Positions 20,360 to 58,849 are shown, counted from the first letter of the stretch. The stretch is DNA of 64,000 nt from a virus (IMGVR_UViG_3300031760_000029:1-64000); one strand, 5' to 3'. The notes: generated by a model not told the origin, from the sequence alone. A program made the numbers and translations.

Positions 20360-20986
20360 CTAATTTAATACAGCGCTTTCTGCCTTGTACTTTTCAATAA
20401 GATCCTCAACATCATCAATTATTCCATCTGAGCAACTGCACGAACAATTGCGCAAGCATTGTATCTCAGCTATTAGCTTATCAAGAATCTCCGCCATATC
20501 AGCCTTTAATCGGACTTCGTAGTCGGTTTTAGAAATTGCAGTACCGTTAGATACACAACTTTCTGATTTGCAAATAGAACATAAACTATCAAGTGTTTCT
20601 CTTTTACCCGTTATAATCCCAAGAATAATATTTCTCTCGTTAAGGCAAGAACCCATGTAAGCCATCTTATCAGCAACATCTTCTGCTATCTTTTTACGTT
20701 CAGCCTTTAATCTTGCTTCGTATGTTGGTTGCACTACATAATTTCCGCAGTTATCAGGCTCTATGTGCGGTGGCATATAAAAAGCACATTTCGTCCTAAC
20801 AATGCCTGATTGAAATTCACATCCGTGATTTGAACAGGAATCGCATAAATTATCCGATGTATTATCCTGCTCTATACCATATTCTTTTGCTATATCTTCT
20901 GGTATTTTTAAGTCCTTATTACCTGTAATGCCTTTCGTAAATTCCGTGAATCCTATTATGGCTTGCTTTGTATCGTCTTTATTCAT
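20360..20986 (-). CDS. Mosaic Cys-rich accessory protein (208 aa)
   Basis: Internal repeat YEARLKAE/YEVRLKAD, LDKLIAEI module, KAES end. Confidence 0.7.
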   Translation of the reverse strand: MNKDDTKQAIIGFTEFTKGITGNKDLKIPEDIAKEYGIEQDNTSDNLCDSCSNHGCEFQSGIVRTKCAFYMPPHIEPDNCGNYVVQPTYEARLKAERKKIAEDVADKMAYMGSCLNERNIILGIITGKRETLDSLCSICKSESCVSNGTAISKTDYEVRLKADMAEILDKLIAEIQCLRNCSCSCSDGIIDDVEDLIEKYKAESAVLN

Positions 20987-20989
20987 TTT

Positions 20990-21244
20990 TTATCCTTTCA
21001 TGTTTGCCTTACTTCTCAAATATTCAATAGCCTTTTCATAAGCATTTACACATTCATTTAATGGGCATCCTAAAATACTGTGCAATAAATACGGTATTAT
21101 GGAATCTATACAATATTCTGATAATAGCGTACCTTTTCTAATAACAGTTTCTATTGCTTTTCGATCCTGTTCATCTATCTCCGATCCATTATCAAATAGC
21201 CGTGTATAAAGATTCTTGTCTATATCAATCAATATCTTCATCAT
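20990..21244 (-). CDS. Hypothetical protein (84 aa)
   Basis: AAGGAG RBS; co-oriented. Confidence 0.65.
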   Translation of the reverse strand: MMKILIDIDKNLYTRLFDNGSEIDEQDRKAIETVIRKGTLLSEYCIDSIIPYLLHSILGCPLNECVNAYEKAIEYLRSKANMKG

Positions 21245-21296
21245 TATTCTCCTTGCCTTCTGCCTTGTATGACATTATAGGATTGATACTTACATC

Positions 21297-21605
21297 TTAT
21301 TCCTCGCTTTCTTTAATATACGGCTCTGGTTCATTAGTGTAATAATACATATATGCAACAGCGTTTTTTGCTACAGCATTATTACTCCATTCCGTCATGT
21401 CGTAATAAATATCATCAACCAAAAATATGTTGTCCACATATTTATATGTCACCCATATTCTTCTGTCTTTCGGAAATTCCTTTAATGGATCAGAAACAGG
21501 AATCCACTTCTGTTCCAACGCCTCCCGTATCTGCTTGCAAGTCTTTTCATTCCACGTTTCCTCACAAGCCCGCATTGCAAGTCTATATGCTTCTTCTCTT
21601 GTCAT
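21297..21605 (-). CDS. Mosaic accessory protein (MTREEA...KWIPVS...KESEE)
   Basis: GGAGG RBS; shares its first 18 nt with the ORF at 57394. Confidence 0.7.
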   Translation of the reverse strand: MTREEAYRLAMRACEETWNEKTCKQIREALEQKWIPVSDPLKEFPKDRRIWVTYKYVDNIFLVDDIYYDMTEWSNNAVAKNAVAYMYYYTNEPEPYIKESEE

Positions 21606-21829
21606 GCTCCACCTCCATAGGAATCAAGATAATACATCACAGCGTCTTTATACTCATTGTTTCCCGTGAGATATCTAAGCATATTAACAAATGCATCCGC
21701 ATCCTCATCTGATCGCAGCTGGCCAATTACATAGTCGCAATTGTTGTGCTGGATCATGATCACTGGTTTCTTGCGCTCTGGTATGTGGCCAACTATGAGA
21801 CCGAGATTATTTCTTTTGTAGCCAGTCAT
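21602..21829 (-). CDS. Hypothetical protein (75 aa)
   Basis: AAGGAGG RBS directly behind the promoter at 21853-21898. Confidence 0.7.
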   Translation of the reverse strand: MTGYKRNNLGLIVGHIPERKKPVIMIQHNNCDYVIGQLRSDEDADAFVNMLRYLTGNNEYKDAVMYYLDSYGGGA

Positions 21830-21852
21830 ATTGCCTCCTTAAAAATCATACA

Positions 21853-22679: not shown

Positions 22680-22687
22680 TATACCTC

Positions 22688-27607: not shown

Positions 27608-27931
27608 ATGGCAAATTGGTATTCAAACAAGAAATCAGCACAGAAGAAGGATGACGATTTCAAGTACGAGATACTGGAGGAGTGCGGCACAATCAGCGAA
27701 CGAAACAACGGATACGAGCTGAAGTTACGGTTGATCAAGTGGGGAGACAATGACCCTAAGTACGACATCCGTCTGTGGAAAACAACAGAAGAGGGCGGAG
27801 AGAAACAGTTCAAGGTAAATACGTTCACTGGAGATGAAATGCAGAATCTGCTTAAGATCCTCAAGAAAATAGACGAGCAGCCCGCAAATAAGCAGCCGCG
27901 TGTGGCAGGAGCAAAGCGCTCCAGAAAGTGA
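27608..27931 (+). CDS. PC4/YdbC-family ssDNA-binding protein
   Basis: YELKLRLIKWGDNDPKYDIRLW...KVNTFT.DE. Confidence 0.8.
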   Translation: MANWYSNKKSAQKKDDDFKYEILEECGTISERNNGYELKLRLIKWGDNDPKYDIRLWKTTEEGGEKQFKVNTFTGDEMQNLLKILKKIDEQPANKQPRVAGAKRSRK

Positions 27932-27939
27932 GGGAAACA

Positions 27940-29338: not shown

Positions 29339-29442
29339 CAGATGTAATTATAGCCTTTTTGACAATAAGTATAAGCGAAATGGTAATATGTTTGGGAATT
29401 GCAACGTATTACCGATGCAAGCGTGGAGAAAGTGAGAAGTAA
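29335..29442 (+). CDS. Small single-TM peptide (35 aa)
   Basis: MTDVIIAFLTISISEMVICLGIATYYRCKRGESEK; ATGA-coupled. Confidence 0.5.
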   Translation: MTDVIIAFLTISISEMVICLGIATYYRCKRGESEK

Positions 29443-29447
29443 GCGAA

Positions 29448-29651
29448 ATGAATACAAATAAAATTTTACTTGATAACACAAAAACGACCGAAGAAAAAGT
29501 ATATCTTATAGCGAAATCCATAAAGGATTCTGGTCGATCAATAGATAATGATTTATGGTACGCAATACTTGACCTCAAAGATAAAAATTTTCCGACAATG
29601 GGAAATGATATTGATTATTTTGCAAAGGCAGAAAGCGAGGTTAAGAAATGA
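29448..29651 (+). CDS. Hypothetical protein ending KAESE (67 aa)
   Basis: Ends in the AAGGCAGAAAGCGAGG junction motif. Confidence 0.65.
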   Translation: MNTNKILLDNTKTTEEKVYLIAKSIKDSGRSIDNDLWYAILDLKDKNFPTMGNDIDYFAKAESEVKK

Positions 29652-29821
29652 AATGTCCGTATCAGACTAAAGTAATTCACAAACCCGAATACACAGATGA
29701 ATATGTAAAAAGGTTTGCCGAAGATGTAACAGAATTTTGTGAATGTGTAAAAAGCGAATGTCCATTTTATTACACATCATTAGCACGTGAACATTGTCGT
29801 AAGGCAGAAAGTGAGGGGTGA
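29648..29821 (+). CDS. Cys-rich small protein ending KAESEG (57 aa)
   Basis: MKCPY...CECVKSECPF; ATGA-coupled; junction motif at both ends. Confidence 0.65.
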   Translation: MKCPYQTKVIHKPEYTDEYVKRFAEDVTEFCECVKSECPFYYTSLAREHCRKAESEG

Positions 29822-38182: not shown

Positions 38183-39169
38183 ATGGCGAAACAGATTGTT
38201 GGATTTGACCGTAAGACAATTTCATGGAACTGCAATCAGATAGTGAAGATGATGGAGAATGCTTCGATTCGCTTTGATTCAGCGGTTCAGAGGACGCTGG
38301 TCTGGGATCAGTCACGGAAGTCGCTTCTAATTCATTCGCTTATCACTGGAATGCCAGTTCCTGCATTCTATGCGGTTCGTGGTGCTGACAAGGTATACGA
38401 CTTCCTTGACGGAAAGCAGAGATGCAATGCAATCCGTGAGTATGTCAAGGGAATGTATTCACTAAAAGATGTACCGCCAGTTCTGTATGACGACGGAAGC
38501 GAAGAGGATATCAACGGAATGTTCTTCAGTGGTCTGTCTGAAGAGATGCAGGACAATATCAAGTCGTATTCATTGAATATCAACTACTTCGATGAACTCG
38601 AAGAGGAACAGCAGGAAGAGTTGTTTTACAGGATCAACAACGGGAAACCTCTTACACAGATTGAACAGTCCAGGGTTCGCTGCAATGCACTTCCGCAGAT
38701 TAAGGTTCTCGGACACCATCCTGTATATGACTTCTTGACTGACAAAGCGAGAGCGAGATACACGGACGAGGATTTGGTTACGAAGTCATTTGCAATCCTC
38801 AATATGGAGACACCGTGTTTGGACACTAAGGAAATCCGTCCATTCATGGAGAAGCTGGTGATTAACAAGGCAGACCACGACAAGATGTGGAAGATTTACG
38901 ACAACATTAAGAAGATGCACGACGAGATGATTGAGAACGAGGCGGGCACGCCAGCCAAGAGATTGTACGTCAAAACACATTTTCTCTCTATTATTCCGTT
39001 TGTTGCGGAACACGGGAAGCAGACAGAATTTCTCCAGCACTTCTTCAGTGGTGAGAGGATGACGATTTCGAAGAAATACAATGATAATGCAACTGCTGGT
39101 GTTGGCCATGTTCCAGCGGTAAAGGCAAGGCTCGATGCAATCGAGGCCGAGTGGAAGAAATTCCACTAA
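38183..39169 (+). CDS. DUF262 (GmrS/ParB-like) domain protein
   Basis: QRTLVW, LIHSL..G.PVP.FY, LDGKQR, LFYRINNGKPL. Confidence 0.85.
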   Translation: MAKQIVGFDRKTISWNCNQIVKMMENASIRFDSAVQRTLVWDQSRKSLLIHSLITGMPVPAFYAVRGADKVYDFLDGKQRCNAIREYVKGMYSLKDVPPVLYDDGSEEDINGMFFSGLSEEMQDNIKSYSLNINYFDELEEEQQEELFYRINNGKPLTQIEQSRVRCNALPQIKVLGHHPVYDFLTDKARARYTDEDLVTKSFAILNMETPCLDTKEIRPFMEKLVINKADHDKMWKIYDNIKKMHDEMIENEAGTPAKRLYVKTHFLSIIPFVAEHGKQTEFLQHFFSGERMTISKKYNDNATAGVGHVPAVKARLDAIEAEWKKFH

Positions 39170-39615: not shown

Positions 39616-39629
39616 AAGGAAAGTTTTAA

Positions 39630-40022
39630 ATGAATATGAATCTCAATATGAAATGGAATGATTATCCGTCAGCATCATTATACTTATGGAACGGATATAC
39701 AATCTTTCGGATTGCTGAGGGAACTGGAGATAATCTGACAAAAGAAGATGAAGAGGCTGGATATAAAGACTACTGGATGACCGAGTATGCCTCAGAAGGA
39801 GATTCTAACGGCGGCATGTGGCTGGAAACGGAATATATCAGCGATATTGATTACACTATTCAGGGAGTCCTCGATAGACTTATGGAATGTGATTTATGGG
39901 AAGACAACTGGGAAATCATTGACGAAGATCTTGGCATTGATTTGATGAATGCTATGGATAAGTATTGGTTTGCAAAGGGAGAAATGAAGAGATTGGTGGA
40001 GAAAGCAAATGGACGGGGATGA
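39630..40022 (+). CDS. Acidic hypothetical protein (130 aa)
   Basis: Cassette-array gene. Confidence 0.7.
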   Translation: MNMNLNMKWNDYPSASLYLWNGYTIFRIAEGTGDNLTKEDEEAGYKDYWMTEYASEGDSNGGMWLETEYISDIDYTIQGVLDRLMECDLWEDNWEIIDEDLGIDLMNAMDKYWFAKGEMKRLVEKANGRG

Positions 40023-40233
40023 TACATTAAAATTTCTCGAGGATTTGGAAAAGGAAACAACAAACAAGAAGCTACGGAATCTGCTGCACTGTCTTATCTC
40101 TTCCAGTCCAAGTCTCGACTTGGCATGTGGAGATTGGAACGACAGGGAGTATTTCTATGCAGAAGAATATGGTGAACTGGTTGAAGATACGGCAAGAGAA
40201 CTGGAAAACATTATGGGAGTTCGAAGGAAATAA
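40009..40233 (+). CDS. Hypothetical protein (74 aa)
   Basis: Cassette-array gene. Confidence 0.65.
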   Translation: MDGDDTLKFLEDLEKETTNKKLRNLLHCLISSSPSLDLACGDWNDREYFYAEEYGELVEDTARELENIMGVRRK

Positions 40234-40259
40234 AAGAAAGGTTTTGTGAGGTAAAAATC

Positions 40260-40460
40260 ATGAAAGAATATAGATTTCGTGTTGATTTGTGTGGCGGTTA
40301 TACTGATGGTTTTATTACGGTAAAGGCAGATGATGAAGGTAATGCATACGACAAGGCAACAGAATATGTTGGCAAGAAATTATATGAAGCATTTCCTGAA
40401 TTAGACATAGAATATAACGTTGAAGTATATGAAGAGTATGATACGGAAGAAGATGAATAA
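40260..40460 (+). CDS. Acidic hypothetical protein (66 aa)
   Basis: Cassette-array gene. Confidence 0.7.
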   Translation: MKEYRFRVDLCGGYTDGFITVKADDEGNAYDKATEYVGKKLYEAFPELDIEYNVEVYEEYDTEEDE

Positions 40461-40485
40461 AAACAACATTTCAAGGGAGGAAGCA

Positions 40486-40731
40486 ATGCAGAGACATTTA
40501 TACTTCGTTAAAATCCAGGGTCGGAAAGCAGTATACGATATCATCATAGCTGCTTTTAGTGAAGCAAATGCACGAGCAGTTGCAGAAGAATATTTTGAAA
40601 ATATAGCAATGGAAGTGAGGCCATGTACTTTAGAAGATATAGATAACGCAAAAGATAAAAGGATTATGCATATGAGTCACATAATGACTCCGTTAGATAG
40701 AGAAGTGGCTGAAAGATATGGTATTAAATAA
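40486..40731 (+). CDS. Hypothetical protein (81 aa)
   Basis: Start at ATG 40486 behind GGGAGG. Confidence 0.65.
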   Translation: MQRHLYFVKIQGRKAVYDIIIAAFSEANARAVAEEYFENIAMEVRPCTLEDIDNAKDKRIMHMSHIMTPLDREVAERYGIK

Positions 40732-40760
40732 AACCAAGATATTTCAAGAGAGGTAAATAT

Positions 40761-40931
40761 ATGGACGAGAAGTCACGGCTTTATGATGAAATAAGCAGAG
40801 TGCTGACGAATTACGAAGAGTATGTAAATGGAACTGGAGATGACAGTGAGATCTACGAGAGAGCTGCAGATATGTATTCTGTTTTGGTGGATATTCAGAA
40901 CCAGTGGGAGACGGTAATTACGGCACAATAA
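40761..40931 (+). CDS. Hypothetical protein (56 aa)
   Basis: Below cutoff; GAGG RBS, palindrome at both ends. Confidence 0.7.
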   Translation: MDEKSRLYDEISRVLTNYEEYVNGTGDDSEIYERAADMYSVLVDIQNQWETVITAQ

Positions 40932-40960
40932 ACCGAACATTTCAAGGAAGGTAAAAGAGA

Positions 40961-41122
40961 ATGACCAAAGCAGAAATCATTAAAGAACTTCATAGTTGTG
41001 GTGAGATGTGGGCAAATAATTCGTACTCAAAAGAATATCTGGAAAAGTATCTTGAAAAATACAAAGAAGCTACAAAAATGACGATTGAAGAATTATATGC
41101 AGCGATTAAGGCAAAGAAATAA
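40961..41122 (+). CDS. Hypothetical protein (53 aa)
   Basis: Below cutoff; palindrome at both ends. Confidence 0.65.
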   Translation: MTKAEIIKELHSCGEMWANNSYSKEYLEKYLEKYKEATKMTIEELYAAIKAKK

Positions 41123-41148
41123 AACCAAGATTTTATAAGGAGTGGATT

Positions 41149-41475
41149 ATGGTAGCTACAAAAACAGATGGATTACTTACATATACTGGTTTCAATCCAG
41201 TAGACAATGGAAAGATATGGATCACAGAAAAAGGGAATTATACATATGTACATAAACAAAATAATGAATGGTCTGTATCGTATGTTCCTATTGCAACGTA
41301 TGATTTAGCATATTTACAAGAAGCAAAACGATGTAGATATGTAGTGCCATCATACTCAATAGAAAAACGAATTATAGATGGTGAGACAGCATATCATTTT
41401 TGGAAAGGAAAGGACTATTGGTTCTTTGACAAAGATGAAGCGATAAAATTTATTCTCGACAATTGGAGCGAATGA
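41149..41475 (+). CDS. Hypothetical protein (108 aa)
   Basis: Cassette-array gene. Confidence 0.7.
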   Translation: MVATKTDGLLTYTGFNPVDNGKIWITEKGNYTYVHKQNNEWSVSYVPIATYDLAYLQEAKRCRYVVPSYSIEKRIIDGETAYHFWKGKDYWFFDKDEAIKFILDNWSE

Positions 41476-41499
41476 AACAAGGTTTTTAAGGGGTGCAAT

Positions 41500-41709
41500 A
41501 TGACAACAATAGAGATACTTACAGCTCTAATTAAAGAACTTGCAGCAAAGAATGGTTTCCCAGAGGATAGAATCCAAGTGTTCTGTGATGATGATGGCAA
41601 AATAGGAATCGATATAGATAACGGAGATTGGAGTAATTGTTTATCATACGATGAAGCCGAAGATCAGATATACAACCTGTTTAAGGGAATTGAATTGTGT
41701 AGTAAATGA
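41500..41709 (+). CDS. Acidic hypothetical protein (69 aa)
   Basis: Cassette-array gene. Confidence 0.7.
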   Translation: MTTIEILTALIKELAAKNGFPEDRIQVFCDDDGKIGIDIDNGDWSNCLSYDEAEDQIYNLFKGIELCSK

Positions 41710-41734
41710 AATAAGATTTTGATAGGAGATATTT

Positions 41735-41920
41735 ATGAGAATATATGATATCAAGTGGGATGTAGCAGATAGTGACCACAAGATTACTCTACCTAAAGAA
41801 GTAATTATCTCAGATCCTGATGAGGCAAAGATAATTGAAAATATGTATGATGGCGATATGGCTTATTATCTTTTTGATGAATACGGATACGATGTTAGAT
41901 CGTTTAGAGTAGATCAGTAA
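41735..41920 (+). CDS. Acidic hypothetical protein (61 aa)
   Basis: Cassette-array gene. Confidence 0.7.
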   Translation: MRIYDIKWDVADSDHKITLPKEVIISDPDEAKIIENMYDGDMAYYLFDEYGYDVRSFRVDQ

Positions 41921-41946
41921 AATAATGTTTTTAAGAGAGGTAAATT

Positions 41947-42144
41947 ATGGTAGCAGTATGTAGACCGCTTGAGGGAATTACGATTAATACAGAAGTTGAA
42001 TATGTATTAGATGATGATGGCGAAATTAAAGAGTTTGAAGATGTAGAAACAGCGGAGGAATGGTTAAAGGAACACGGAGTTACAGAAGAGATCATGGAGT
42101 ATCTGATGTTTGTTAACGCAGAAAACGGAGAGTTAATAAAATAA
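41947..42144 (+). CDS. Acidic hypothetical protein (65 aa)
   Basis: Cassette-array gene. Confidence 0.7.
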   Translation: MVAVCRPLEGITINTEVEYVLDDDGEIKEFEDVETAEEWLKEHGVTEEIMEYLMFVNAENGELIK

Positions 42145-42167
42145 CTTTTTGATAAGGAGGGACGGAT

Positions 42168-42335
42168 ATGAAGGGTAGACGAATCAGACAAATCAATAAT
42201 TTAACTATTCGCTACACTGATTTTTATCAGTATTCTGTATGGACTCCAGATGGACGATGCTGGGAAGACAGGATGACTTATAGCGAAGCTGTTGAGTTTT
42301 GTAAAAATACAAAGGATTTTGTAAATGAAAGCTGA
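42168..42335 (+). CDS. Hypothetical protein (55 aa)
   Basis: Below cutoff; AAGGAGG RBS. Confidence 0.65.
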   Translation: MKGRRIRQINNLTIRYTDFYQYSVWTPDGRCWEDRMTYSEAVEFCKNTKDFVNES

Positions 42336-42353
42336 ATTTAAAGGAAGCTGACT

Positions 42354-42530
42354 ATGGCATATATCTTAAAAGAATCGTGTGGAACGTGCAGACAAGATCC
42401 TATGGAACTAAAAGAGAGACAGGATTGTTTGGTGTATGACGAAATGGAATGTGAAGCAAAGGATTGTAATGAATGTTTCATGGTTGAAGAGGAAGACAAA
42501 AATGCATACATTGATCAAAGAATTGTGTGA
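42354..42530 (+). CDS. Cys-rich hypothetical protein (58 aa)
   Basis: Follows palindrome and AAGGAAG. Confidence 0.5.
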   Translation: MAYILKESCGTCRQDPMELKERQDCLVYDEMECEAKDCNECFMVEEEDKNAYIDQRIV

Positions 42531-42711
42531 GGAAAATGGGGTTGAATATAGCGAAAAGCTGTTTCGGGAAATACATTTTAGATGCTCTGATCTTGAAAAG
42601 GATGATGTAACCGAAAATATCCTGGCCTGCCTTGATTACATTAAAGACAACGGATTGGACGCGCTGATAAACGAGATGGATGACTGTAATATCTGGTCAT
42701 ACATTTGTTGA
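42502..42711 (+). CDS. Hypothetical protein (69 aa)
   Basis: GAGG RBS; ends next to a palindrome. Confidence 0.6.
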   Translation: MHTLIKELCEENGVEYSEKLFREIHFRCSDLEKDDVTENILACLDYIKDNGLDALINEMDDCNIWSYIC

Positions 42712-42744
42712 TAAAACGGTTATTCCAAAGGGAGGGCGAAAGCA

Positions 42745-43035
42745 ATGAAACATGAAGTAACTCTGTCGATTGAAAGTGTGCGGGCTGTTGCAAATGGAGA
42801 AGAATATGACAGTTGGGGAGAGGTCCAGGTATGGAATGGAAAGATAGGTGCCGAGTATAATCTGTGTTTTAATGGGGAAAATTGCAGCGCAATATATTTA
42901 ATGGGAGAAGATGATGATGGTTATTGGGACACTGATACTAGTACATTTGAACACTATGAGATAGATCCTGACGATCCTAAATGGAAAGAGAATTTAATCG
43001 AAGCGATGGAAAAATTTGTAAAAAATAATAGCTGA
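42745..43035 (+). CDS. Acidic hypothetical protein (96 aa)
   Basis: GGGAGGG RBS. Confidence 0.7.
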   Translation: MKHEVTLSIESVRAVANGEEYDSWGEVQVWNGKIGAEYNLCFNGENCSAIYLMGEDDDGYWDTDTSTFEHYEIDPDDPKWKENLIEAMEKFVKNNS

Positions 43036-43127
43036 ATACATACAATATATTGCACAAAGACAAATCATAGAATCAATATACTGTATACAAAATGCCAATA
43101 AAAGTAACGTTTAATTGGAGATGAAAC

Positions 43128-43340
43128 ATGTTGAAGAAGAAGACGGATAATGGCACGATCTCGGCAACGTCATTTGAAACAATGAATGAGAAGGGAATTG
43201 CAGTTGGTTTGTATGGAGAGATGAGTGTAGTGAGCTTTGAGAGCAATGGAAAAGGATTGATTCTTCTGATTAACGACGACATGATCGAGCAGTTTAGAGT
43301 GAATGTGTTACATACAGATGCAAATTGGAACGCGAAGTAA
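43128..43340 (+). CDS. Hypothetical protein (70 aa)
   Basis: Palindrome plus GGAG RBS. Confidence 0.65.
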   Translation: MLKKKTDNGTISATSFETMNEKGIAVGLYGEMSVVSFESNGKGLILLINDDMIEQFRVNVLHTDANWNAK

Positions 43341-43725
43341 GGGAGGAGAATAAAATAGCATGGATAATGCAATTGTAAAGGAAACACGAGATATATGGTG
43401 GAATGAAATTACAAACATCATTTATTGCTCCGAATCGTGTGAAAATGCAGCAGAAGAAATCCTTGAATATCTGGAGGAAGAGGGAGCATTTACGGTAGTG
43501 GATGATTAAGGGAGGACAAATTATGAGTAAGAGATATAAGGTGCGAATCGTTAGCAAGCGTAGCTCTATTGACCATGACTACTACACTGGAAACAAGGAG
43601 GTACGGTCTTACGTCTGGGACGAACCAGACAAAAAAGAGGAGCTGTTTCTATAGAAACCCAACACTTTTTTGAGATACGTAAGGTAATAATAGATATGAT
43701 ACAAAGTGATTCATAGGAGGGAAAT

Positions 43726-44019
43726 ATGACAGAAATGATTGGGGTAAATACAAGTGCTGGTGTGCTAAGAGCTTATAAGAGTGCAGATCCTGGTCAACCA
43801 GGTATTTGTGTAGTATTACAACCCAAAGGATATGATTGTGAAATAGATATGTCTTATGTATCTGTATATGAAGATCCAGAATATAAGACATATATGAATG
43901 AAGAACCTGAGGATGTATCGATTATGACATATGGAAATCCGTATAATGAAGACTACACAGATAAGGTAATGATTAGAAGAAATGATGTTGTGAATGCGTT
44001 AAATTATGAGGGAGAATAA
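43726..44019 (+). CDS. Acidic hypothetical protein (97 aa)
   Basis: AGGAGGG RBS. Confidence 0.7.
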   Translation: MTEMIGVNTSAGVLRAYKSADPGQPGICVVLQPKGYDCEIDMSYVSVYEDPEYKTYMNEEPEDVSIMTYGNPYNEDYTDKVMIRRNDVVNALNYEGE

Positions 44020-44020
44020 G

Positions 44021-44410
44021 ATGAAGGATGATATTTACAAGGGATGTATGTTGATCGGACACAGATTCAATCAAAAATATAGTACAGAAGAAACAGATGA
44101 TTGGAGTGGATCGGAAGAGTGTTCTACCGTAGCGAGATTAACATATACCCTGATGGATACATTGAACGTCAGCATGGAGAAAGCACTAGATATTGTAATG
44201 GAAATCGCTATGAATCAAGGCTTCCGAAAGGTTGAAGAACATATGTGGGATGACTACTGCAGAGGTTTTCTTGCTGGTCAGATCATCGGAATGCCAACCA
44301 AAGAGAATCTAAAGAAGGTAAATGAGGCAGAAGAACTTTGGTTGGATGATAGATATGGAAAATATGGATACTATCAGGAGGTCTTAGAAGAAGTTAGTAA
44401 TAAAATGTGA
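44021..44410 (+). CDS. Hypothetical protein (129 aa)
   Basis: GAGGGAG RBS. Confidence 0.7.
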   Translation: MKDDIYKGCMLIGHRFNQKYSTEETDDWSGSEECSTVARLTYTLMDTLNVSMEKALDIVMEIAMNQGFRKVEEHMWDDYCRGFLAGQIIGMPTKENLKKVNEAEELWLDDRYGKYGYYQEVLEEVSNKM

Positions 44411-47776: not shown

Positions 47777-48718
47777 ATGAGTGGGCGAGCTGAAATGGAT
47801 AAGAAAAATGATAAATGGATAAATGAGAGAAAAGGTAAATGCTCTCAATTCGTCTCCGATTATATTGATAGTATCGATGGTGTAAAAACATCTGCCACCA
47901 GAAAGCAATATTTGTATTATCTGATGGATTTTGAGAAATATATTAAGAAATTAAATGTTGATATATGTAAAGTAAAACCATTTCATGTTGAAAAGTATCG
48001 AAATTGTCTAACTAAAAATGGAAATAAGGCAAGTATCGTTAATGGAAAACTGTCTGCGATTATTTCTTTTTACAATTTTCTAATCAAAAATGGATTTGTA
48101 GACAAGAATCCATGTGATAATGACATGAAATTAAAAATTGCAGAAAAAGAATCTGTTGTATATATGACAGATGAAGAGATTCATAAGTTAAAGGAAAATA
48201 TCGTTTCATGTAAAAATAGGCATAGTGATAGATTTGTATTAAGAGATTTATGTATAGTTCAACTTGGATGTGCTACTGGTTTGCGTGTTTCTGCTATTGT
48301 TAATATAGATATTGATGATATTGATTTTGAGCAAATGACAATTAAAGTTGTTGAAAAGGGAAATAAAGTAAGGACGATATATATTGGCGAAAACACAGTG
48401 AATAGTATTAAGAACTGGCTAAAAGAAAGAGTTATAACCGTTCGAAACAAGGAAGAGAGAGCTTTATTCATTGGTAATCATGGTGGTCGTATGTCTGCTT
48501 CAGCTGTACGAAATCTATTGAAACATGATGCGGGCGAGTTTGGTAAGCATATCACTCCTCATAAAATGCGTTCAACATGTGCCATGAAACTATACGATAA
48601 GACTGGAGATATTTATTTAACAGCACAGCAGCTCGGGCATGCTAATGTGAAAAACACCATGATATACGCAAAAGCAACAGAAGAGAAACGACGTATGGCC
48701 GCAGATTTGTTAGATTGA
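47777..48718 (+). CDS. Tyrosine recombinase (XerC/D-like; SPbeta YopP/SroD position)
   Basis: SAM-like N-terminal domain; catalytic R (GLRVS), K (EKGNK), HxxR (HKMR), H (LGH), Y (TMIY) all present. Confidence 0.92.
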   Translation: MSGRAEMDKKNDKWINERKGKCSQFVSDYIDSIDGVKTSATRKQYLYYLMDFEKYIKKLNVDICKVKPFHVEKYRNCLTKNGNKASIVNGKLSAIISFYNFLIKNGFVDKNPCDNDMKLKIAEKESVVYMTDEEIHKLKENIVSCKNRHSDRFVLRDLCIVQLGCATGLRVSAIVNIDIDDIDFEQMTIKVVEKGNKVRTIYIGENTVNSIKNWLKERVITVRNKEERALFIGNHGGRMSASAVRNLLKHDAGEFGKHITPHKMRSTCAMKLYDKTGDIYLTAQQLGHANVKNTMIYAKATEEKRRMAADLLD

Positions 48719-49058: not shown

Positions 49059-50249
49059 ATGACTAACAGAGACGAGTTATGCGCAGATCTTCAGAAGATT
49101 CTTGAACGAAATAGCAGTAATGATACAAAAGTAAAAGAGTATATTAAAACGATCGGAGATAATCATGCACTTCCAGTATCTAAGATCTTTGACTATGTAA
49201 CGGTAAGGGAAGTCATTTCTGTCCTCGATGACACGATGTTGTTTTGTATATGTGAGGCGGTCGCCAATGATAAACTTCCTCAGTTTTTTAATAAGGAAGA
49301 GATTGCTTCGTATTCGAAATGGAAATATGTAGATACAGATAAATTTACTATTCCACATACATTTCAGAATGTGCTTGCGGTTGGAGACGATCAGTGGATT
49401 ACTATAACGAGTGCAAAGGAATTGATTCGTATGGGCAATTCCCAAGTGCTTCGCTATAACGCAACCACCCAGCGCCCGCTGCAGATCGTTCGTCACGGAA
49501 CAATCGAAACGTATATCCCTTACTATAATAAAAGTGCTGGCGACGCCATAAGGGAGTCGTATACCTCTGGTAAGTACATTCCTAACTTCATTACAATCAA
49601 TGTCCCAGATACACATATATGCGAATACAATGCAGAGGAAATGAGTCTGCGTGTTGATGCACCATATTTTGATCTGATTGATGGATATCATAGATATCGT
49701 TCTCTACTTTCAATATGTAGTAGTGACAAAACATTTGATTATCCTATGGGCCTGCAAATCATGAATTTTTCTGAGGGTAAGGCAAAATATTTCATCTATC
49801 AAGAAGATCAAAAGACAAAGATGGCGAGGTCATCTTCAAAAGCAATGGACGTATATGCAACGCAAAATAGGATTGTATCCAGGTTGAATGCAGATCCTTC
49901 GTTTATTCTTTGTGATAACATTAATCAGAACACAGGAGTTGTAAATTCTGCTGATCTTGGAGTTGCGATTGCTAGATTGTATGCAAATGGAGATATTATA
50001 GAGATCACAAATGAGATCAAGGCTGGTATAGAAACGTTAGTCCAAAAGAAACCAGGACTGCTCGATAAGAAATGGGATAAGAAATATACATATACCATAG
50101 TATTTATGATCAAGTACCACATCCCTATGACCAAAGTAGATGGTGTCTATAAGAAAGTTCTGTCTAACAATATGTTTAACGGTGATACAATTACCAGGGC
50201 AGATACAAGAAAAATGAATGACATCTTAGGTAAGAAAGGGGGTGTATGA
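49059..50249 (+). CDS. DGQHR/DndB-like (ParB-fold) protein, SPbeta YopQ/SroE-like
   Basis: YNATTQR, NFITIN, LIDGYHRYRSL, FIYQED. Confidence 0.75.
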   Translation: MTNRDELCADLQKILERNSSNDTKVKEYIKTIGDNHALPVSKIFDYVTVREVISVLDDTMLFCICEAVANDKLPQFFNKEEIASYSKWKYVDTDKFTIPHTFQNVLAVGDDQWITITSAKELIRMGNSQVLRYNATTQRPLQIVRHGTIETYIPYYNKSAGDAIRESYTSGKYIPNFITINVPDTHICEYNAEEMSLRVDAPYFDLIDGYHRYRSLLSICSSDKTFDYPMGLQIMNFSEGKAKYFIYQEDQKTKMARSSSKAMDVYATQNRIVSRLNADPSFILCDNINQNTGVVNSADLGVAIARLYANGDIIEITNEIKAGIETLVQKKPGLLDKKWDKKYTYTIVFMIKYHIPMTKVDGVYKKVLSNNMFNGDTITRADTRKMNDILGKKGGV

Positions 50250-50250: not shown

Positions 50251-51168
50251 ATGTTTAACACAGAGAGAAAAGAAAAATTTATAGCAGAGAATAATAATTT
50301 TGCAGAAAAGGAACTATACGAAAAGAGAATTCGTTTTCTTTTTTCTCAAACTGCTGGGCTAGAAGAAGAATATGGAAAAGATCTGTGTGATTTCTCGTAC
50401 AATGAAATTATCGACTATTACAAGGCGTTGACTACTGCATCATTGGATCGACTAATTGTTACAAATAATATATTTACTACATACGGAGCTTGGTGTCTAA
50501 AGAATGGTTATGTTCAAGATGGACTTAATCACTATGCAGAAATTACATCGGATGTGTTGAATACATGTATAAATCTTGGGCATCAAAGAGATTTATTCAT
50601 ACCTAGATCGGAGTTACTTAACGCGATCAGGGGATTTGGCAACAAATATGAAGAGGTAATTGTTCTTGGATTGTATGAAGGATTAGATTTAATTGATTTG
50701 CAGAATCTGACTATTAATGATATCAATAGTCATAAATATGAAGTAAGATTACAAAAAGAAAGAACGTTGACTGTATCAAAAGAACTTATCTCTACTATGA
50801 TTGAATCTGCAGATACGTATGAAGTTGTACAAATGGATGATAGAAAGAGAAAATTGTATGATGATTACAAAAAGGATTCTCCGTTAATAATCAAATTGTT
50901 TAAAGAAAGATCTATGGATGATCGTACATCACAATTATTTAATATTATGAAGAGAATCAAGGCAAATTACGGATACTCCTGGTTGAGTGCGGCAAACCTT
51001 CCAATGATTGGTTCAGCCAATATGTTATTGGAGCTTTTGCAAAAAGAAAAGGGAAAGACAGCTGAGGAGGTGGCAAACGAACACATTGCTGAATTTAAGT
51101 TGAGATATGGACCATATTGGAGATACGGAAAGAGGATGAAATTGAAGTTTGGATATCTTTATGAGTAG
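50251..51168 (+). CDS. Catalytically dead tyrosine-recombinase-fold protein, MrpR/YopR/SroF-like repressor
   Basis: MFNTERKEKFI...EEEYGKDLCDFS.NEI N-terminus; LYEGLDLIDL lacks the catalytic Arg; follows the DGQHR gene. Confidence 0.7.
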   Translation: MFNTERKEKFIAENNNFAEKELYEKRIRFLFSQTAGLEEEYGKDLCDFSYNEIIDYYKALTTASLDRLIVTNNIFTTYGAWCLKNGYVQDGLNHYAEITSDVLNTCINLGHQRDLFIPRSELLNAIRGFGNKYEEVIVLGLYEGLDLIDLQNLTINDINSHKYEVRLQKERTLTVSKELISTMIESADTYEVVQMDDRKRKLYDDYKKDSPLIIKLFKERSMDDRTSQLFNIMKRIKANYGYSWLSAANLPMIGSANMLLELLQKEKGKTAEEVANEHIAEFKLRYGPYWRYGKRMKLKFGYLYE

Positions 51169-52844: not shown

Positions 52845-53993
52845 ATGGGAAAATTTGGTAAAAAACATGTTATTGATCTGAATCCTTTAAGTTTTCAGAT
52901 TTGTCTAAGTGGGCTCGGTGGTATCGGCAAGACCACTCTGGCTAAGGAAGTTTGTGAAAAACTTGTTGGAGAGAATGGATATATACATTTTAATATCGGA
53001 CGTGAAGGTGGTGTGGATGCAATTTCAAACATTGTGTCTGAACCAATTGAAGATTGGGAAAAGTTGGAAGAAGTTGTTGATGACATCGTCGAAAATAAAG
53101 ATAGTGATTATCCAGATTTAAAGGTTGTTGTTTGGGATAGTTTGGATGAATTAATTCGACTCGGAGAAGCGGAAACTATTCGTTTGGAGAATAAAAAGAA
53201 TCCAAGTGAAAAAGTTGACTCGATTTTAAAGTGCAGAGGCGGTTTTGGAAAAGGACAGGATTTCTGTATCAATATGATTCTTGATTGTATGTGGGCATTA
53301 AAAAATGTAGGCGTGAATTCGTTTATCATAGCACACACAAAAAGATCAGATATTATTGATCCTGTTTCTCAGGCCACATATTCCCAGTTGACGGCTGATG
53401 CTCAACAGAGATATTTCAATGCAATTCGAAATAAGATGGATATCATTGCTGTTGGATATATTGATAGGGAAATTGCACAGGAGAACACTGGACGTAAAAA
53501 CATCGTGACTAAAAAGGATATTACGATCAATAAGGTATCTTCTGAAACAAGAGTAATTTCTTTCAGAGACGATAGTTACAGTATAGATAGTAAGTCTAGA
53601 TTCGCTGATATTGCTGACAAAATTCCTTTTGATTCGGACGAATTCATTAAAGCAATTCAGGACGCAATTAAGGCCGAGAATGAAAAAAGTGGATTATCTT
53701 CTGCTGAGATAAAGAAAACTCAGGCAGCTAAAGATAAAAAGATGAAGGAAGATGCGTCTGCATATTCTAAGAAAGCAAAAGAGAATCATGTAGACACCGA
53801 TCGCAACGACGAACTGGTCGCACAGATCAAACCTTTATATAAAGCTGCGGAGCAGGAAACCAAGGATGCAGTAAAAGAAATCATGGCAGAATATGAAATT
53901 AAATCCTTCAAAGATGTCTCCGAGACACCCACAGTAGCACTTGAGAAGATCTTATCGATTCTTTCTGAGAAGATCGTATCGATTCTCTCGTAA
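52845..53993 (+). CDS. AAA_24/Sak4-like P-loop ATPase (YorG-like)
   Basis: GLGGIGKTT, VVWDSLD, IIAH, SKSRF. Confidence 0.85.
   Translation: MGKFGKKHVIDLNPLSFQICLSGLGGIGKTTLAKEVCEKLVGENGYIHFNIGREGGVDAISNIVSEPIEDWEKLEEVVDDIVENKDSDYPDLKVVVWDSLDELIRLGEAETIRLENKKNPSEKVDSILKCRGGFGKGQDFCINMILDCMWALKNVGVNSFIIAHTKRSDIIDPVSQATYSQLTADAQQRYFNAIRNKMDIIAVGYIDREIAQENTGRKNIVTKKDITINKVSSETRVISFRDDSYSIDSKSRFADIADKIPFDSDEFIKAIQDAIKAENEKSGLSSAEIKKTQAAKDKKMKEDASAYSKKAKENHVDTDRNDELVAQIKPLYKAAEQETKDAVKEIMAEYEIKSFKDVSETPTVALEKILSILSEKIVSILS
53942..53989 (+). repeat. 24-bp tandem duplication at the ATPase 3' end
   Basis: TGAGAAGATC(T/G)TATCGATTCT(T/C)TC x2, encoding EKILSILS/EKIVSILS. Confidence 0.9.
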
Positions 53994-54014
53994 ACCTCCT
54001 TTCTATATATATGC

Positions 54015-54049
54015 AGAAGGGAGCGGGGAAACCCGTTCCCTTCTCTTTT
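54015..54049 (+). terminator. Intrinsic terminator
   Basis: AGAAGGGAGCGGG-GAAA-CCCGTTCCCTTCT-CTTTT. Confidence 0.8.
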
Positions 54050-54060
54050 GGGTAAAAAAT

Positions 54061-55785
54061 ATGACAGCAGAACAATTGATTAAGGTAGCCATGGATATGG
54101 GCTACGCAGATGAAAAACAGACACGATATTACATTGATCGCTATCCTAAGGAGGATTATGACGAATGGCAAGATATCCGTGACTTATACAGAATGTGGGA
54201 GCCGCCTTATAGATGTGTGAAACGATCCCAAGCACATAAAAATTTCGTCGAGGTGGGTAAATGAGTGCCGAAGGATTCAACAGACAATTTAGGCCGAGAC
54301 GTATCCGATCAAACGGAGATTTTATCGTGGTACATTATGATAAAAATAAAGTTGAACCACAAGATATTGTGGATTTTTTGGACAGAATTAAGGGTATCCC
54401 AGAACGAAATCGAGGAACAGTTTTTGTAGTGGAGCCAGAGGGGATTTATTTTAAAAGGAGATCATAAAATGTACGTAAATTCAACAGCAAGACGCGATTA
54501 TGATGAGATGATGTCTTTTAGTCGTAGGGTTAAGAAGTTCCGCGAGAGTCTGAAACCAGGGATGACACTTAAGGTTCATCCGTCAACTGATAGCCAGACA
54601 TTCGACAAGAAGACAAAGCTTGCCAAGGTTGTCGAAATATACAAACACTATGTACATTTGCAAGATGATGATGGGTTCAATTACGGACCTACATACCAAA
54701 CTCTTTTAATGTGGGGTAACAATTGATGAAGATTGAAAAGTATATTAGCTCGGATAAAAACAGAAAACACAAGATGTTGTATGCGGTATATACCAATGAC
54801 GAGTCCAAGGCGTTGCGGGCCGTGAAGGATATTCGCAAAATGAAAGAAGAGTATGAAGTACGACCTGGGTATGTATCTGGGAAAGATCTGTGGTGGGATC
54901 CGAAATACGGCAAAAAGAAAGTAATGGTTGTTTCAGTAAAATGATTATTACTGCTGCCGAGTGTCATAGCTTGGTGGCGGATTGGTGCAAAAATTGCACA
55001 TTATAAATTGCAAATGAGGGGATTGTTATGAAGTGTTGTTCAAATTGTAGATTTGGAACATATTATCCAGATGATTACGTGTATTGCGGAAAACTTGAGA
55101 GTCCTAAGTATTCGCTCATTTTAGACCAGGATGATAAATGCAAAGAATGGAAGTCAACTTGTTTGTGCGGATCGTGCAAACAGGTTCGTGTGACTAATGA
55201 AGGTGAGTGGGAAGTATACGCTTGTGATTATATGACGAATGTTGATCCTTCCGATGAAGCGTGTGAACATTTTGAAAGAGGTGATAAAGATGGATTGTTG
55301 TGAGAAATGTAAATATTTCAGAGTATTGAAACACAATTTTGAAATAGGTAAAGGTTTTGAATTGTCACATGCTTGTGTTTTGTATGCAGAAGATTCTGAA
55401 TCATTCATTATAGAAGTCACACCGCAGGATATGTGTGAAATGTTTACGGAGGTTAATAATGGGTAACTGGGATGTCGAGTTAGATCAATATAAAGATATG
55501 AACGATGAAATGTTAATAGAACAAGTAATTAAGTATTTTAAAAGATCGTTAGAAAGCAGTATGCGTGCATACAATAACCCGCATATATATGGCGAAATTA
55601 AGGATTTGTCAGAATTTGATATCAAGAATTTAGCTTTATTTGAAATTTATGCGTATCAGAGGGCTATTGCTGCGATAGAAGCCGTGGAATGCTTGACAGA
55701 GTACCTTAATAATCCGAATAGCGGGGAAAATGGATTAGTACACATTGACGATGTGCGCGGAGTTATGGAGGGATATCAGGCATGA
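54061..55785 (+). other. Run of seven small hypothetical CDSs (54061-54264, 54261-54467, 54469-54726, 54726-54944, 55028-55303, 55290-55466, 55459-55785)
   Basis: Overlapping or coupled starts with GAGG-type RBSs; two are Cys-rich. Confidence 0.65.
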
Positions 55786-56219
55786 GCGATGAAATGACAA
55801 GAGAACAGGCAATCGGAATTATTACATTACACCGCGAGCATTGGCAAAGGCTTATGAAAGGCAACGTATGTTCGAAGCAGGAAGGCGAAGAATCAATAGC
55901 GGCATTTGATGTAGCACTTGCCGCACTATCAGCAGTACTGTGTAAGAATGCTATCAGCAGAGAAAGTGTATTATCCATTATCGAAGAAAACCAAGAAGAT
56001 GATGCGGATGAATGGATGGACTATCCGTGGAAGGTTACACCTAATCTGTTGATGGATGAGATGCGGAAATTGCCGCCCGTCACACCGAGCGTGATTGATG
56101 ATATCAAGGCAGAGATAAAGCAAAAGCGCGAAGAGAATAGAAACGGTGAATATGACAAAATCTTTGAACTGTGCTTACTAATCATTGATAAGCACACAAG
56201 CGGAAAGGAACAAGCATGA
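55782..56219 (+). CDS. Mosaic accessory protein (145 aa)
   Basis: Modules MTREQA / CKNAISRESV / LPPVTP / IDDIKAEI. Confidence 0.75.
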   Translation: MSDEMTREQAIGIITLHREHWQRLMKGNVCSKQEGEESIAAFDVALAALSAVLCKNAISRESVLSIIEENQEDDADEWMDYPWKVTPNLLMDEMRKLPPVTPSVIDDIKAEIKQKREENRNGEYDKIFELCLLIIDKHTSGKEQA

Positions 56220-56605
56220 GCGAGGAAATGACAAGAGAACAGGCTCGTGACACATTACGAAACGCCGCATGGTTGGGCACTGACGAGGACAGAGAACGTA
56301 TTGAGAAAGCGGTCGAATTACTTTGCGGAGAACCGTGCGAAGAAACTATCAGTCGACAGGCGGTTTTGGATTTAGCGGTAAAAATCGAGTTGCCCGACAG
56401 TCAGACGTTTTTCTGCATTAGTCCCGAAGATGTAGAAGCGTTACCACCCGTCACACCACAGCCAAAGACAGGGCATTGGATAGAGTGTGAGGAAGAAGTA
56501 AAGTGCTTTTGTTCTGAATGTAAAGAAATATCAGACTATCCAACACAGTTTTGTCCTAACTGCGGCGCGAAGATGGTTGAGCCACAGGAAAGTGAAGAAG
56601 CGTGA
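56216..56605 (+). CDS. Mosaic accessory protein with Zn ribbon (129 aa)
   Basis: Modules MTREQA / CEETISRQAV / LPPVTP / GHWI...CSEC...CPNCGAKM. Confidence 0.78.
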   Translation: MSEEMTREQARDTLRNAAWLGTDEDRERIEKAVELLCGEPCEETISRQAVLDLAVKIELPDSQTFFCISPEDVEALPPVTPQPKTGHWIECEEEVKCFCSECKEISDYPTQFCPNCGAKMVEPQESEEA

Positions 56606-57027
56606 AAACTAAAACATATTTTCATGGTGATGGACATTCTAAATGGGGCATATGGAATAATATGCGCAAGGAGTTTCAATTTGGAATATGCGAAGATACG
56701 CCGCTACTAGCAGAACGAAAATTGCGTCAAAAGATAGGTAATGACGCAAGAAAATGGCGGTTTGAAGTAAAACAATTACCATGCGCTACAAGGAAGAAAG
56801 CGAGGTATCGGATGGAGATTAAGAAGTTGACGGAATATAAAGGAGCGTCGCGTTTTGGAAATTGCATAGAATGCGGAGAGATGGAATCAGATAAACATAG
56901 ATTATACAGATTGCAGTTTAAGGGCGTTTCCATTTGCTTATGTCCCGATTGCTTTAGAACAGTCAGAGCAAAGATGAATGATGCGATTTTAGATGGATAT
57001 ATAGGCAAGGCAGAAAGCGAGGGATAG
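56602..57027 (+). CDS. Mosaic accessory protein (141 aa)
   Basis: GTGA-coupled; CIEC...CPDC; ends KAESEG. Confidence 0.65.
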   Translation: MKTKTYFHGDGHSKWGIWNNMRKEFQFGICEDTPLLAERKLRQKIGNDARKWRFEVKQLPCATRKKARYRMEIKKLTEYKGASRFGNCIECGEMESDKHRLYRLQFKGVSICLCPDCFRTVRAKMNDAILDGYIGKAESEG

Positions 57028-57029
57028 GC

Positions 57030-57209
57030 ATTGGTAAATGCAGATATGATCTGTCGGAAGATTGTCACAATAGAGATTGCCTTGATTGTGTGCTTGGAAA
57101 GATACGGGCGGAGATAAATACACCAAACAGAGGGACTTGTGATTATTTTATCGTGGATAAAATCGAAGAAATCGTTCACAAGTACAAGGAAGAAAGTGGG
57201 GAACACTAA
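57030..57209 (+). pseudogene. Cassette gene with ATT start or lost ATG (59 codons)
   Basis: GAGG RBS, ATT GGT AAA TGC..., LGKIRAEI module, ends YKEESGEH. Confidence 0.45.
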
Positions 57210-58849
57210 TGTCAACCGTATCCAAATATGAATGGAATATGTACCAAAAGCAAAAAGAATACAACGCACAAAAAGATAACAACCATTTTATCAATGAGTT
57301 TCGTAATAAGTCTAACGAAACTTTTGAACTTGCAAACAAAATAATTGAATCATTAGATACTCTTAAAAAAGTAACAAACAGCGAGGAACAGGCATGACAA
57401 GAGAAGAAGCAATATGTATAGCCGAAGAATTTAGTGAATGGCTTGAAGATATAGCTGAAAAGTATGGGTGGGATAAGGATGATGTACAGGTTTTAATAAA
57501 ACAGTTTTTGCTGTGTGAGGTCGAAGGATGACAAGAGATCCAATATAACTCACTATTAAGGAGCTGCATGAAAGCGATGGATGAGGAAAATGTATAAGAA
57601 CTATATAGCGGTGTGGTCAGTAGATGAAGAAATGAAAAGAGGTAATAAAAACTCTATTCATACTTTCATTGATACCGACGGTGATAAACTTCCTGTGTCT
57701 AGTAAACTTCACAGAGTAAGTGACGAGACGGTTAGAAAAATATGGGAATTGATTAAGGCAGAAAGTGAGGTAGAAGAATGATCTTAACACTTATATTTAT
57801 TTTTATGCTACTTTTAGGTCTTGTACTTATTTGGATTGATGATAATACGAATGCAGATACAGATATAAGTGGAGTAGTTCTTACTGCATTTGGTTCTGTT
57901 TTTCTTATTATTGCCATCATAGTAATTATTATAACACATGCATGTGCCGATCATACCATAAAGCAGAATCAAATAAATTATGAAGGATTATGTAAAAGAT
58001 ACGAAATTTCTAAATCTGAATATGAAGACGTATCTAAATCTGATGTAATAGCTGATATAACCTCCTGGAATATGGAGGTTTATAACACAAAATACTGGAC
58101 AGAAAATCCGTGGACGAACTGGTTCAATCCGCGAGAGATCGCTAATAATCTAGAGTATATTCCATTAGATGAAGAAAGCGAGGAATAGAAATATGCCAGA
58201 TGCAGAAATTGTAAAAAACGCCTTGAAGTATTTGGTGAAATTAAGAATTGATAATGGTGAGTATGGATATGCTGGTGATAATCCAGATGATTATGTCTCA
58301 TGGAAATATGTGCTTCAGATACTCGATCTTATGCCATGTGATAAAGTGGCCGACTATGGATTGTGTGGATTATGCGCAGATCAAGGCGGTTGTGGAGCTT
58401 GTGTTGCAGAGACGAGGAAAGAGTTAGAAGAAGAATTTGGTATATTGTTTTCAGATGAAATAAAGAATGATGAGGAAGAGTCCGTCCTTGATAAGATAAG
58501 AGCCGAGATTATTGAAAAAGACAGAAACGTAAAAGCCATAAGAAGTGATTGCTGTTGCTTTTTCACCGCAGATGAAATTTTAAATATTCTTAATAAGTAC
58601 ATGGTAGAAAGTGATGAATAAGCGAGGATAAAAAAGATGAAGCCAGAGGATAATTCTAAGTTTGATGGATATATAGACCGAATAACAGTTAATGGTAAAA
58701 CTTATCGTTTAAAATGTGTTATTACAGAGGTGTATCCGATGTCTTGTCCTAAATGTGGTGGTAGAGTTGAACTAAAATATGGGCATGGTAAATGTGAGTA
58801 TTGTGGAACAAATTATTCAACACAATTTAAATTACAGGAGGATAAATAA
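57209..58849 (+). other. Run of small hypothetical CDSs (57209-57397, 57394-57531, 57581-57781, 57778-58188 membrane protein, 58193-58621, 58637-58849 Zn ribbon)
   Basis: Coupled starts; most end in ...ESE junctions. Confidence 0.65.

Follow-up and report, generated by a model that had tools for sequence, protein, structure and literature searches.

Why should small, unrelated genes in separate accessory blocks of one phage genome end in the same short sequence? The question is raised by IMGVR_UViG_3300031760_000029, in which the window (the whole stretch analysed, being the first 64 kb of one 82.6-kb virus record, 39% GC) carries a 16-mer, AAGGCAGAAAGYGAGG, that a sequence-only reading had described as a junction motif and a possible recombination handle. 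We propose that this 16-mer is probably the 5' two-thirds of a standard junction of about 27 nt between small accessory genes of Lachnospiraceae-type phages, with the consensus AAGGCA-GAAAGYGAGG-ATAAGGA-ATGA, and that the junction serves both as a ribosome site and as a short-homology exchange point. The motif's role as a cassette border is observed directly, and the ribosome-site role of its core is well supported by predicted pairing with 16S rRNA; a causal role as a recombination handle is plausible on sequence grounds, with the case for and against it about evenly balanced.

The four exact copies reported at 29625, 29801, 57007 and 57755 are present, all on the plus strand, and none was found in 100 shuffles; with up to three mismatches allowed, 11 copies of the 16-mer are seen against 0.73 expected. 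The 10-nt core, GAAAGYGAGG, has nine exact copies across the 82.6-kb record. All of the degenerate copies listed earlier were recovered within about 4 nt (20371, 21251 and 21301 on the minus strand, and 27922, 29429, 56585, 57186, 58168 and 58601 on the plus strand), together with two that the earlier reading had missed, a one-mismatch copy at 56790 and another at genome position 73641, outside the window. A three-mismatch match at 37360, within the gene for a 346-aa protein, is probably a chance occurrence. Comparison of the flanks of the four exact copies showed similarity limited to the 16 nt itself. Paralogy of the genes that these copies end was considered and rejected, and none of these genes has a Pfam family above the curated cut-off. 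The copies in the window and the genes that they serve are as follows, SD denoting a Shine-Dalgarno site.

29625-29640, plus strand: exact 16-mer; tail KAESEVKK-stop of gene 29448-29651; SD for ATG 29648, with an ATGA overlap.
29801-29816, plus strand: exact 16-mer; tail KAESEG-stop of the cassette gene 29648-29821; SD region for ATG 29827.
57007-57022, plus strand: exact 16-mer; tail KAESEG-stop of gene B (56812-57027); the next 15 nt hold no start codon.
57755-57770, plus strand: exact 16-mer; tail KAESEVEE-stop of gene 57581-57781; SD for ATG 57778, with an ATGA overlap.
56790-56805, plus strand: one-mismatch copy; read by the upstream gene as R-K-K-A-R, in another frame; SD for gene B, ATG 56812.
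57186-57201, plus strand: two-mismatch copy; tail KYKEESGEH-stop; TAATG overlap with ATG 57209; member of the LDKIRAEI...KY domain family.
58168-58183, plus strand: exact-core copy; tail DEESEE-stop of gene 57778-58188; SD for ATG 58193.
58601-58627, plus strand: degenerate copy and a second half-motif, AAGCGAGGA; tail KYMVESDE-stop; the half-motif serves ATG 58637.
27922-27937, plus strand: exact core, read R-K-stop (the stop, TGA, is part of the core); SD for ATG 27941.
29429-29444, plus strand: degenerate core, GAAAGTGAGA, preceding ATG 29448.
56585-56600, plus strand: PQ-type variant, CCACAGGAAAGTGAAG; tail EPQESEEA-stop of the zinc-ribbon gene 56216-56605; GTGA overlap, start at 56602.
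20371-20386, minus strand: two-mismatch copy; tail KYKAESAVLN-stop of gene 20360-20986; the next gene has its own canonical SD, TAGGAGGGG.
21251-21266, minus strand: two-mismatch copy inside a 16-codon vestigial open reading frame (ORF), MSYKAEGKEN..., whose AAGGAG is the SD of gene 20990-21244.
21297-21312, minus strand: exact core; tail PYIKESEE-stop of gene 21297-21605.

Small ORFs in the window end in the motif, with tails such as KAESEVKK, KAESEG, KEESGEH and DEESEE, and the GAGG lies 6-10 nt from the next start codon, often with an ATGA or TAATG overlap. The proposal that the motif supplies the next gene's SD holds in general, with fixed spacing and usually with overlapping genes, but it fails at 20371 and 58601, where separate SDs are present, and at 57007, where no start follows. 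The use of another frame that had been noticed at 27922 is real, and 56790 is a second instance. The copies at 20371 (minus), 57186 and 58601 all close the same homologous domain at the C-terminus, ...LDKIRAEI...KY(K/M)xES; here paralogy is accepted, and the suspicion of a merely conserved peptide tail partly applies to these three.

Elsewhere it is the nucleotides that matter and not the peptide, as had been suggested, because codon usage at the motif is strongly biased and the core is also used in other frames. Where Glu-Ser-Glu falls within the last ten residues in the fetched loci it is spelled GAA-AGY-GAG in 334 of 370 cases (90%); at internal Glu-Ser-Glu the share of GAA-AGY-GAG is about 15-20%, with GAAAGTGAG found in 25 of 173 and GAAAGCGAG falling below the 12 combinations listed. 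In a conservative set restricted to loci new to the scan with a 21-mer of the junction, Ala before the core is GCA in 49 of 51 cases (42% background), and Lys is AAG in 26 of 29 (44% background). The Asp-Lys-Glu spacer is spelled ATAAGGA in 15 of 17. Motif counts in IMG/VR are lower bounds, and these codon tests were therefore made within fetched loci and not between scans. Among 266 dereplicated and non-ascertained cores, 77% are in the Glu-Ser-Glu frame and about 23% in other frames. A functional C-terminal peptide would be expected to be codon-independent and always in one frame, whereas the codons here are near-fixed and other frames are used; the KAESE/ESE tail arises as a side effect when the core bases are translated.

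The core, with its preceding purine (RGAAAGYGAGG), is complementary to the Bacillota-type 16S rRNA 3' tail, CCUCCUUUCU, through six base pairs, one bulged Y and a further four base pairs, so that AGAAAG-Y-GAGG is the extended Bacillota SD, AGAAAGGAGG, plus one extra base. RNAduplex predicts -13 to -14 kcal/mol for the core with GAUCACCUCCUUUCUA, a Lachnospiraceae-type tail that may not be that of the phage's host, compared with -16.8 kcal/mol for a perfect site and -7.3 kcal/mol for GAGG alone. The sequence GGATCACCTCCTTTCT is found exactly five times in an Enterocloster genome, and the copy examined (L248; L-numbers are labels of fetched comparison loci) is at a 16S gene 3' end. Pairing with 16S rRNA would explain the purine at -1, the core itself and the freedom of the Y, and leaves the AAG, GC and spacer bases unexplained. 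Complementarity to the 16S tail, a fixed short distance to the start and confinement to the coding strand, which together characterize an SD, are all found.

The junction is not peculiar to this phage. The exact 16-mer is in at least 114 IMG/VR contig stretches, and the 21-mer GAAAGTGAGGATAAGGAATGA is in at least 118, where we estimate about 0.03 by chance; the full recurrent junction is AAGGCAGAAAGTGAGGATAAGGAATGA. A stop codon lies 5-12 codons after the Lys of the K-A-E-S-E frame in 115 of 125 listed IMG/VR copies, nearly all of which close a long ORF, and GAGG and ATG are 6-7 nt apart in 87 of about 115 listed copies. EPQESE, as at 56585, is the second commonest variant in IMG/VR among the matches listed. 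A degenerate 24-nt version occurs at 30 places in species-representative genomes, more than half of them Lachnospiraceae by record name, including Butyrivibrio, Enterocloster, Acetatifactor and Eubacterium, with the remainder mostly other Bacillota; the records are mostly rumen or gut metagenome-assembled genomes (MAGs). The 214 fetched loci fall into 143 groups that share no further nucleotide similarity, and among the carriers are a contig of 200 kb and a 62-kb phage contig that encodes a family-A DNA polymerase. Cores in these loci lie on the gene strand in 610 cases and on the opposite strand in one. With tails removed, the upstream proteins form 39 BLASTP clusters, seven of which share the LDKIRAEI...IDKY domain, leaving 32 that seem unrelated, and the 551 junctions have flanks in 432 upstream and 442 downstream clusters. 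The median core spacing is 307 nt, and distances of 3n+2 are favoured, as expected of chains of ATGA-overlapping genes. Core density is 109 per Mb in the phage and 6-7 per Mb in two Lachnospiraceae genomes, with 3-4 per Mb in a reversed-pattern control. We rejected the notion that the core is an ordinary host ribosome site, the host density being only about twice that of the control. A full-text literature search for motif strings found nothing relevant.

Within the window, the motif coincides with the ends of homology to otherwise different loci. Four cassettes match other loci at 71-87% DNA identity, and in every match the neighbours differ. Among them are the following.

29648-29821, plus strand: gene for a 57-aa protein between two exact copies of the 16-mer; 83% amino acid and 86% nucleotide identity to L135 and L215.
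57581-58188, plus strand: two adjacent cassette genes (57581-57781 and 57778-58188) with relatives in two different phage contigs, L033 and L193.

The match to L135 (29631-29816, 86% identity) begins at core base 29631 and ends exactly at 29816, and that to L215, a Lachnospiraceae MAG (29648-29816, 86.5%), ends exactly at the same base; one homologue of this cassette has plain GGAGG in place of the motif. The matches of 57580-57781 to L033 (87%) and of 57752-58192 to L193 (71%) overlap solely in the 30-nt junction at 57755. Homology of 56795-56945 to L247 (81%) begins inside the 56790 copy, and at 21251 (minus) the junction and the following N-terminus are common to L121, L096 and L106.

Other features of the window junctions bear on how they are built. 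Positions 57028-57209 hold a start-less remnant of the LDKIRAEI...KY family, in a frame that is open back through the 57007 motif with no ATG and only GTG 57090; it looks like the scar of a past rearrangement at the junction. At 21267-21300 on the minus strand, an ATG-TAA start-stop comes right after the PYIKESEE tail and is followed by the vestigial MSYKAEGKEN... ORF, and mini-ORFs of a similar kind (MRYKAESE) are present in L021, L032 and L073. Homologues of the 141-aa ORF 56602-57027 are two genes, A (MKTKTYF...KWRFE) and B, which starts at ATG 56812 just after the 56790 copy; as A and B here share a frame that no stop interrupts, annotation would wrongly join the two. In P0005, a homologue of gene B, the tail KAKSEPQESEDKE consists of two tandem junction units, KA-type then PQ-type, which suggests unequal exchange between junction copies.

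Across 2 Mb of loci we scored, at dereplicated small-gene junctions, the broken fraction, defined as the share of homologous pairs in which homology stops there. It is 0.80 at junctions with the core and 0.61 at non-motif junctions (nominal p = 1.5e-4), and 0.83 versus 0.61 when only motif copies not used for retrieval are considered (nominal p = 7e-4). By SD class it is 0.81 for the motif (relaxed core), 0.68 for canonical GGAGG, 0.59 for a weak SD and 0.56 for no SD. Where two loci have the downstream gene in common, the ends of their homology cluster at the motif's 5' edge; where they have the upstream gene in common, the ends cluster at its 3' edge or at the ATG. Two to six different downstream flanks are joined to each of 36 upstream flank clusters, and the reverse holds for 32. 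In this comparison across the fetched loci, the excess of breakpoints at motif junctions is real but modest, and it is small relative to canonical GGAGG junctions. The earlier suggestion of a recombination handle stands insofar as cassette homology starts and stops at the motif, both in the window and in IMG/VR; it does not extend to causation.

Short patches of identity are also seen inside genes. Segments of 38-60 nt at 56436-56484 and 58453-58531, which encode ...PQPKTGHWIE and ...VLDKIRAEI, recur at 80-100% identity, in several copies each, in many IMG/VR loci that are unrelated in other respects. The DKIRAEI and TGHWI patches are frozen at synonymous sites, even at rare codons (ATA in 24 of 24; GGG in 12 of 16, versus a 14% background). 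Short patches identical by descent are therefore a general trait of this gene pool, and for the junction bases that do not pair this speaks for descent and recombination more than for independent convergence.

We suggest that the core acts as a strong SD that would couple translation of the next gene to that of the one before, and that the junction may be a point at which co-resident phages and prophages cross over through short homology and so exchange genes. The crossover role is inferred because the junction is the sole sequence common to unrelated cassettes and is conserved even at synonymous sites. An incoming gene would arrive already in register, bringing a ribosome site for its neighbour. 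The exchange may be catalysed by the phage's own AAA_24 (Sak4-type) protein, a candidate recombination protein on the strength of its domain match.

52845-53993, plus strand: AAA_24 (Sak4-type) ATPase gene (PF13479, E = 6.5e-20), at the edge of accessory block 3.

The setting of this gene can be compared with that in other phages. Two segments of the window, compared by Megablast with 50,697 phage records, gave no match, and the best helicase match among cultured phages is 42% identical, in a Lysinibacillus phage. The RNA ligase led to one relative, L245, and the AAA_24 protein to nine loci; protein identity to these relatives is 25-71%. In six relatives, zero or one small gene separates the AAA_24 gene from the gene corresponding to that at 60624, and the same slot here (53994-60623) holds a 6.6-kb block of small genes, which is accessory block 3, and the RNA ligase. 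A second array of tiny genes at 39600-44400 has another junction style, with gaps of about 25 nt and canonical SDs, and the KAESE motif is in none of its junctions. Tyrosine-integrase-like genes at 47777-48718 and 50251-51168 flank a phrog_5732 gene (49059-50249), and the trio is in the same order in relative L250 at 27-30% identity. Also present are a GmrSD_N-domain gene (38183-39169) and, among the replication genes, one for a class-V aminotransferase of cysteine-desulfurase-like type (62625-63752).

Several considerations weigh against a junction that doubles as an exchange point. The relatives just described are without the accessory blocks and without the 16-mer, and their only core-like matches are in L250, at one PQ-type junction, and in L252/L253, where the copy is antisense. 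A length of 16-27 nt is the lower limit for known phage annealing systems. The broken fraction at motif junctions exceeds that at canonical GGAGG junctions with p = 0.03, and for overlapping junctions only the values are 0.76 and 0.67; none of the breakpoint p-values takes account of relatedness. The loci were retrieved via the motif, which may inflate apparent mosaicism and is only partly controlled by the test with motif copies not used for retrieval. Gene boundaries are expected to be breakpoints under any model, because broken genes are lost. Finally, unbiased copies carry only 0.1-0.4 bit per position upstream of the core, and AAGGCA is therefore a common sub-variant and not a universal part of the junction.

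Some of these points are shared by an alternative in which the motif is a ribosome-binding site only, the bulged SD and its purine-rich spacer being selected independently at many coupled junctions and the breakpoints coinciding with it since genes are the units that survive illegitimate recombination. The pairing, spacing and strand bias all fit an SD, there is little information outside the core in unbiased copies, canonical GGAGG junctions are almost as mosaic as motif junctions, and one homologue of the 29648 cassette makes do with plain GGAGG. We nonetheless regard this explanation as unlikely, if one to be taken seriously, as exact 16-, 21- and 27-mers recur in more than 100 unrelated contigs, synonymous bias reaches bases unable to pair with the rRNA (AAG is preferred to AAA, and ATAAGGA in the spacer), the core is scarcely used by host genes, and intragenic patches that are not SDs have the same frozen codons. 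That conservation reaches past the bases able to pair with 16S rRNA, on the coding strand only, could instead reflect binding or cleavage of the mRNA by a factor other than the ribosome, such as a repressor of translation, an endoribonuclease with SD-like target sites, or an element of the STAB-SD type that stalls 30S subunits and protects downstream mRNA; the same possibility has been raised for the start-associated sequences (SAS) of Cluster K mycobacteriophages (PMC3203893). However, phages of 62, 82 and 200 kb with very different gene content share the motif, which makes a common phage-encoded factor unlikely, no candidate factor came to light, and the fixed 6-7-nt spacing to the start is a requirement of initiation, so that we consider an mRNA-binding factor quite improbable.

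We give still less credence to the idea that KAESE is a functional C-terminal peptide, whether a docking, sorting or degradation tail, with the DNA repeat as its codon-level shadow. Most unbiased cores do use the Glu-Ser-Glu frame, and 20371, 57186 and 58601 end one homologous domain, LDKIRAEI...IDKY, as does the IDKY-KAESE subset of IMG/VR. Yet tail codons are almost fixed where internal ESE codons are free, some copies read R-K-stop or R-K-K-A-R, and the tail is found on more than 30 unrelated families with the residues after ESE varying freely. Least credible of all is a target for a site-specific recombinase, with integron-like cassettes mobilized by the product of the tyrosine-recombinase gene at 47777-48718 or 50251-51168: such genes are present and the motif bounds arrays of cassettes at a median spacing of about 300 nt, but it is an asymmetric purine run with no inverted repeat, and so offers no paired recombinase binding arms, it is tied to the reading frame and to start-codon spacing, and two carrier loci sampled from other phages have no integrase nearby. 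Integron attC sites are imperfect inverted repeats with a linked integrase, and the motif lacks dyad symmetry.

In overlapping gene pairs (ATGA, TAATG) the downstream SD lies in the last upstream codons and biases the C-terminal residues. The motif is like such intragenic SDs and translational coupling in that it embeds the next gene's SD in the last codons of the gene upstream, but we know of no case of ordinary translational coupling in which identical 16-27-mers are found in unrelated genes of unrelated phages. The boundary or 'linker' sequences of lambdoid phages, proposed as sites of homologous exchange in the theory of modular evolution (refs 21 and 22 of PMC3029335), offer the closest parallel to an exchange point, since there too a short junction sequence is the sole similarity between otherwise unrelated modules; the motif differs in lying within the upstream coding region, in doubling as an extended SD, and in being present in more than 100 contigs that share no other nucleotide similarity, where the linkers belong to one phage group. 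The PeSL cassettes of hyperplastic regions in T4-type phages carry intergenic promoters and terminator hairpins that act on transcription (PMC2839356, PMC4122927). As with PeSL, accessory ORFs are flanked by a short regulatory element in which indels and replacements end, and they lie in variable blocks among core genes; unlike PeSL, the motif has neither promoter nor hairpin, no stem-loop being possible where 23 of the 27 consensus bases are purines, and it would act on translation. The SAS of Cluster K mycobacteriophages is an asymmetric 13-bp repeat, GGGATAGGAGCCC, that includes an SD and lies 3-7 bp before starts (PMC3203893). Like the motif it is in one orientation, near non-structural genes only, with different gene families, and with conserved bases unable to pair with 16S rRNA, so that the positional logic is the same, although the sequence and the host phylum differ; the SAS, unlike the motif, lies mostly where more than 50 bp separate the genes, is confined to one cluster and has not been linked to mosaic breakpoints. 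Relative to these known systems, what is new is a coding, bulged and extended SD, without promoter, hairpin or dyad, that is common to many unrelated phages of one host clade.

In practical terms, the junction shows where genes truly end and begin in arrays of tiny ORFans, splitting for example the 141-aa ORF 56602-57027, and it flags accessory, exchangeable genes in Lachnospiraceae phages. The origin of phage mosaicism is an old open question, set between homologous exchange at linkers and random illegitimate joining followed by selection, and at most mosaic boundaries such linkers have proved difficult to detect (PMC3029335). The junction described here is short and easily scanned, and is present in more than 200 contig stretches from rumen and gut with many independent gene combinations on each side, which makes the question testable. 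It is possible, and we offer it as a tentative proposal with the balance tilted a little against it, that Lachnospiraceae phages of the rumen and gut share a community-wide 'plug-and-play' joint of about 27 nt, made of a bulged extended SD and an in-register stop/start, by which small genes may cross lineages through short-homology recombination without a dedicated site-specific recombinase, with DKIRAEI and TGHWI as secondary joints for the shuffling of domains.

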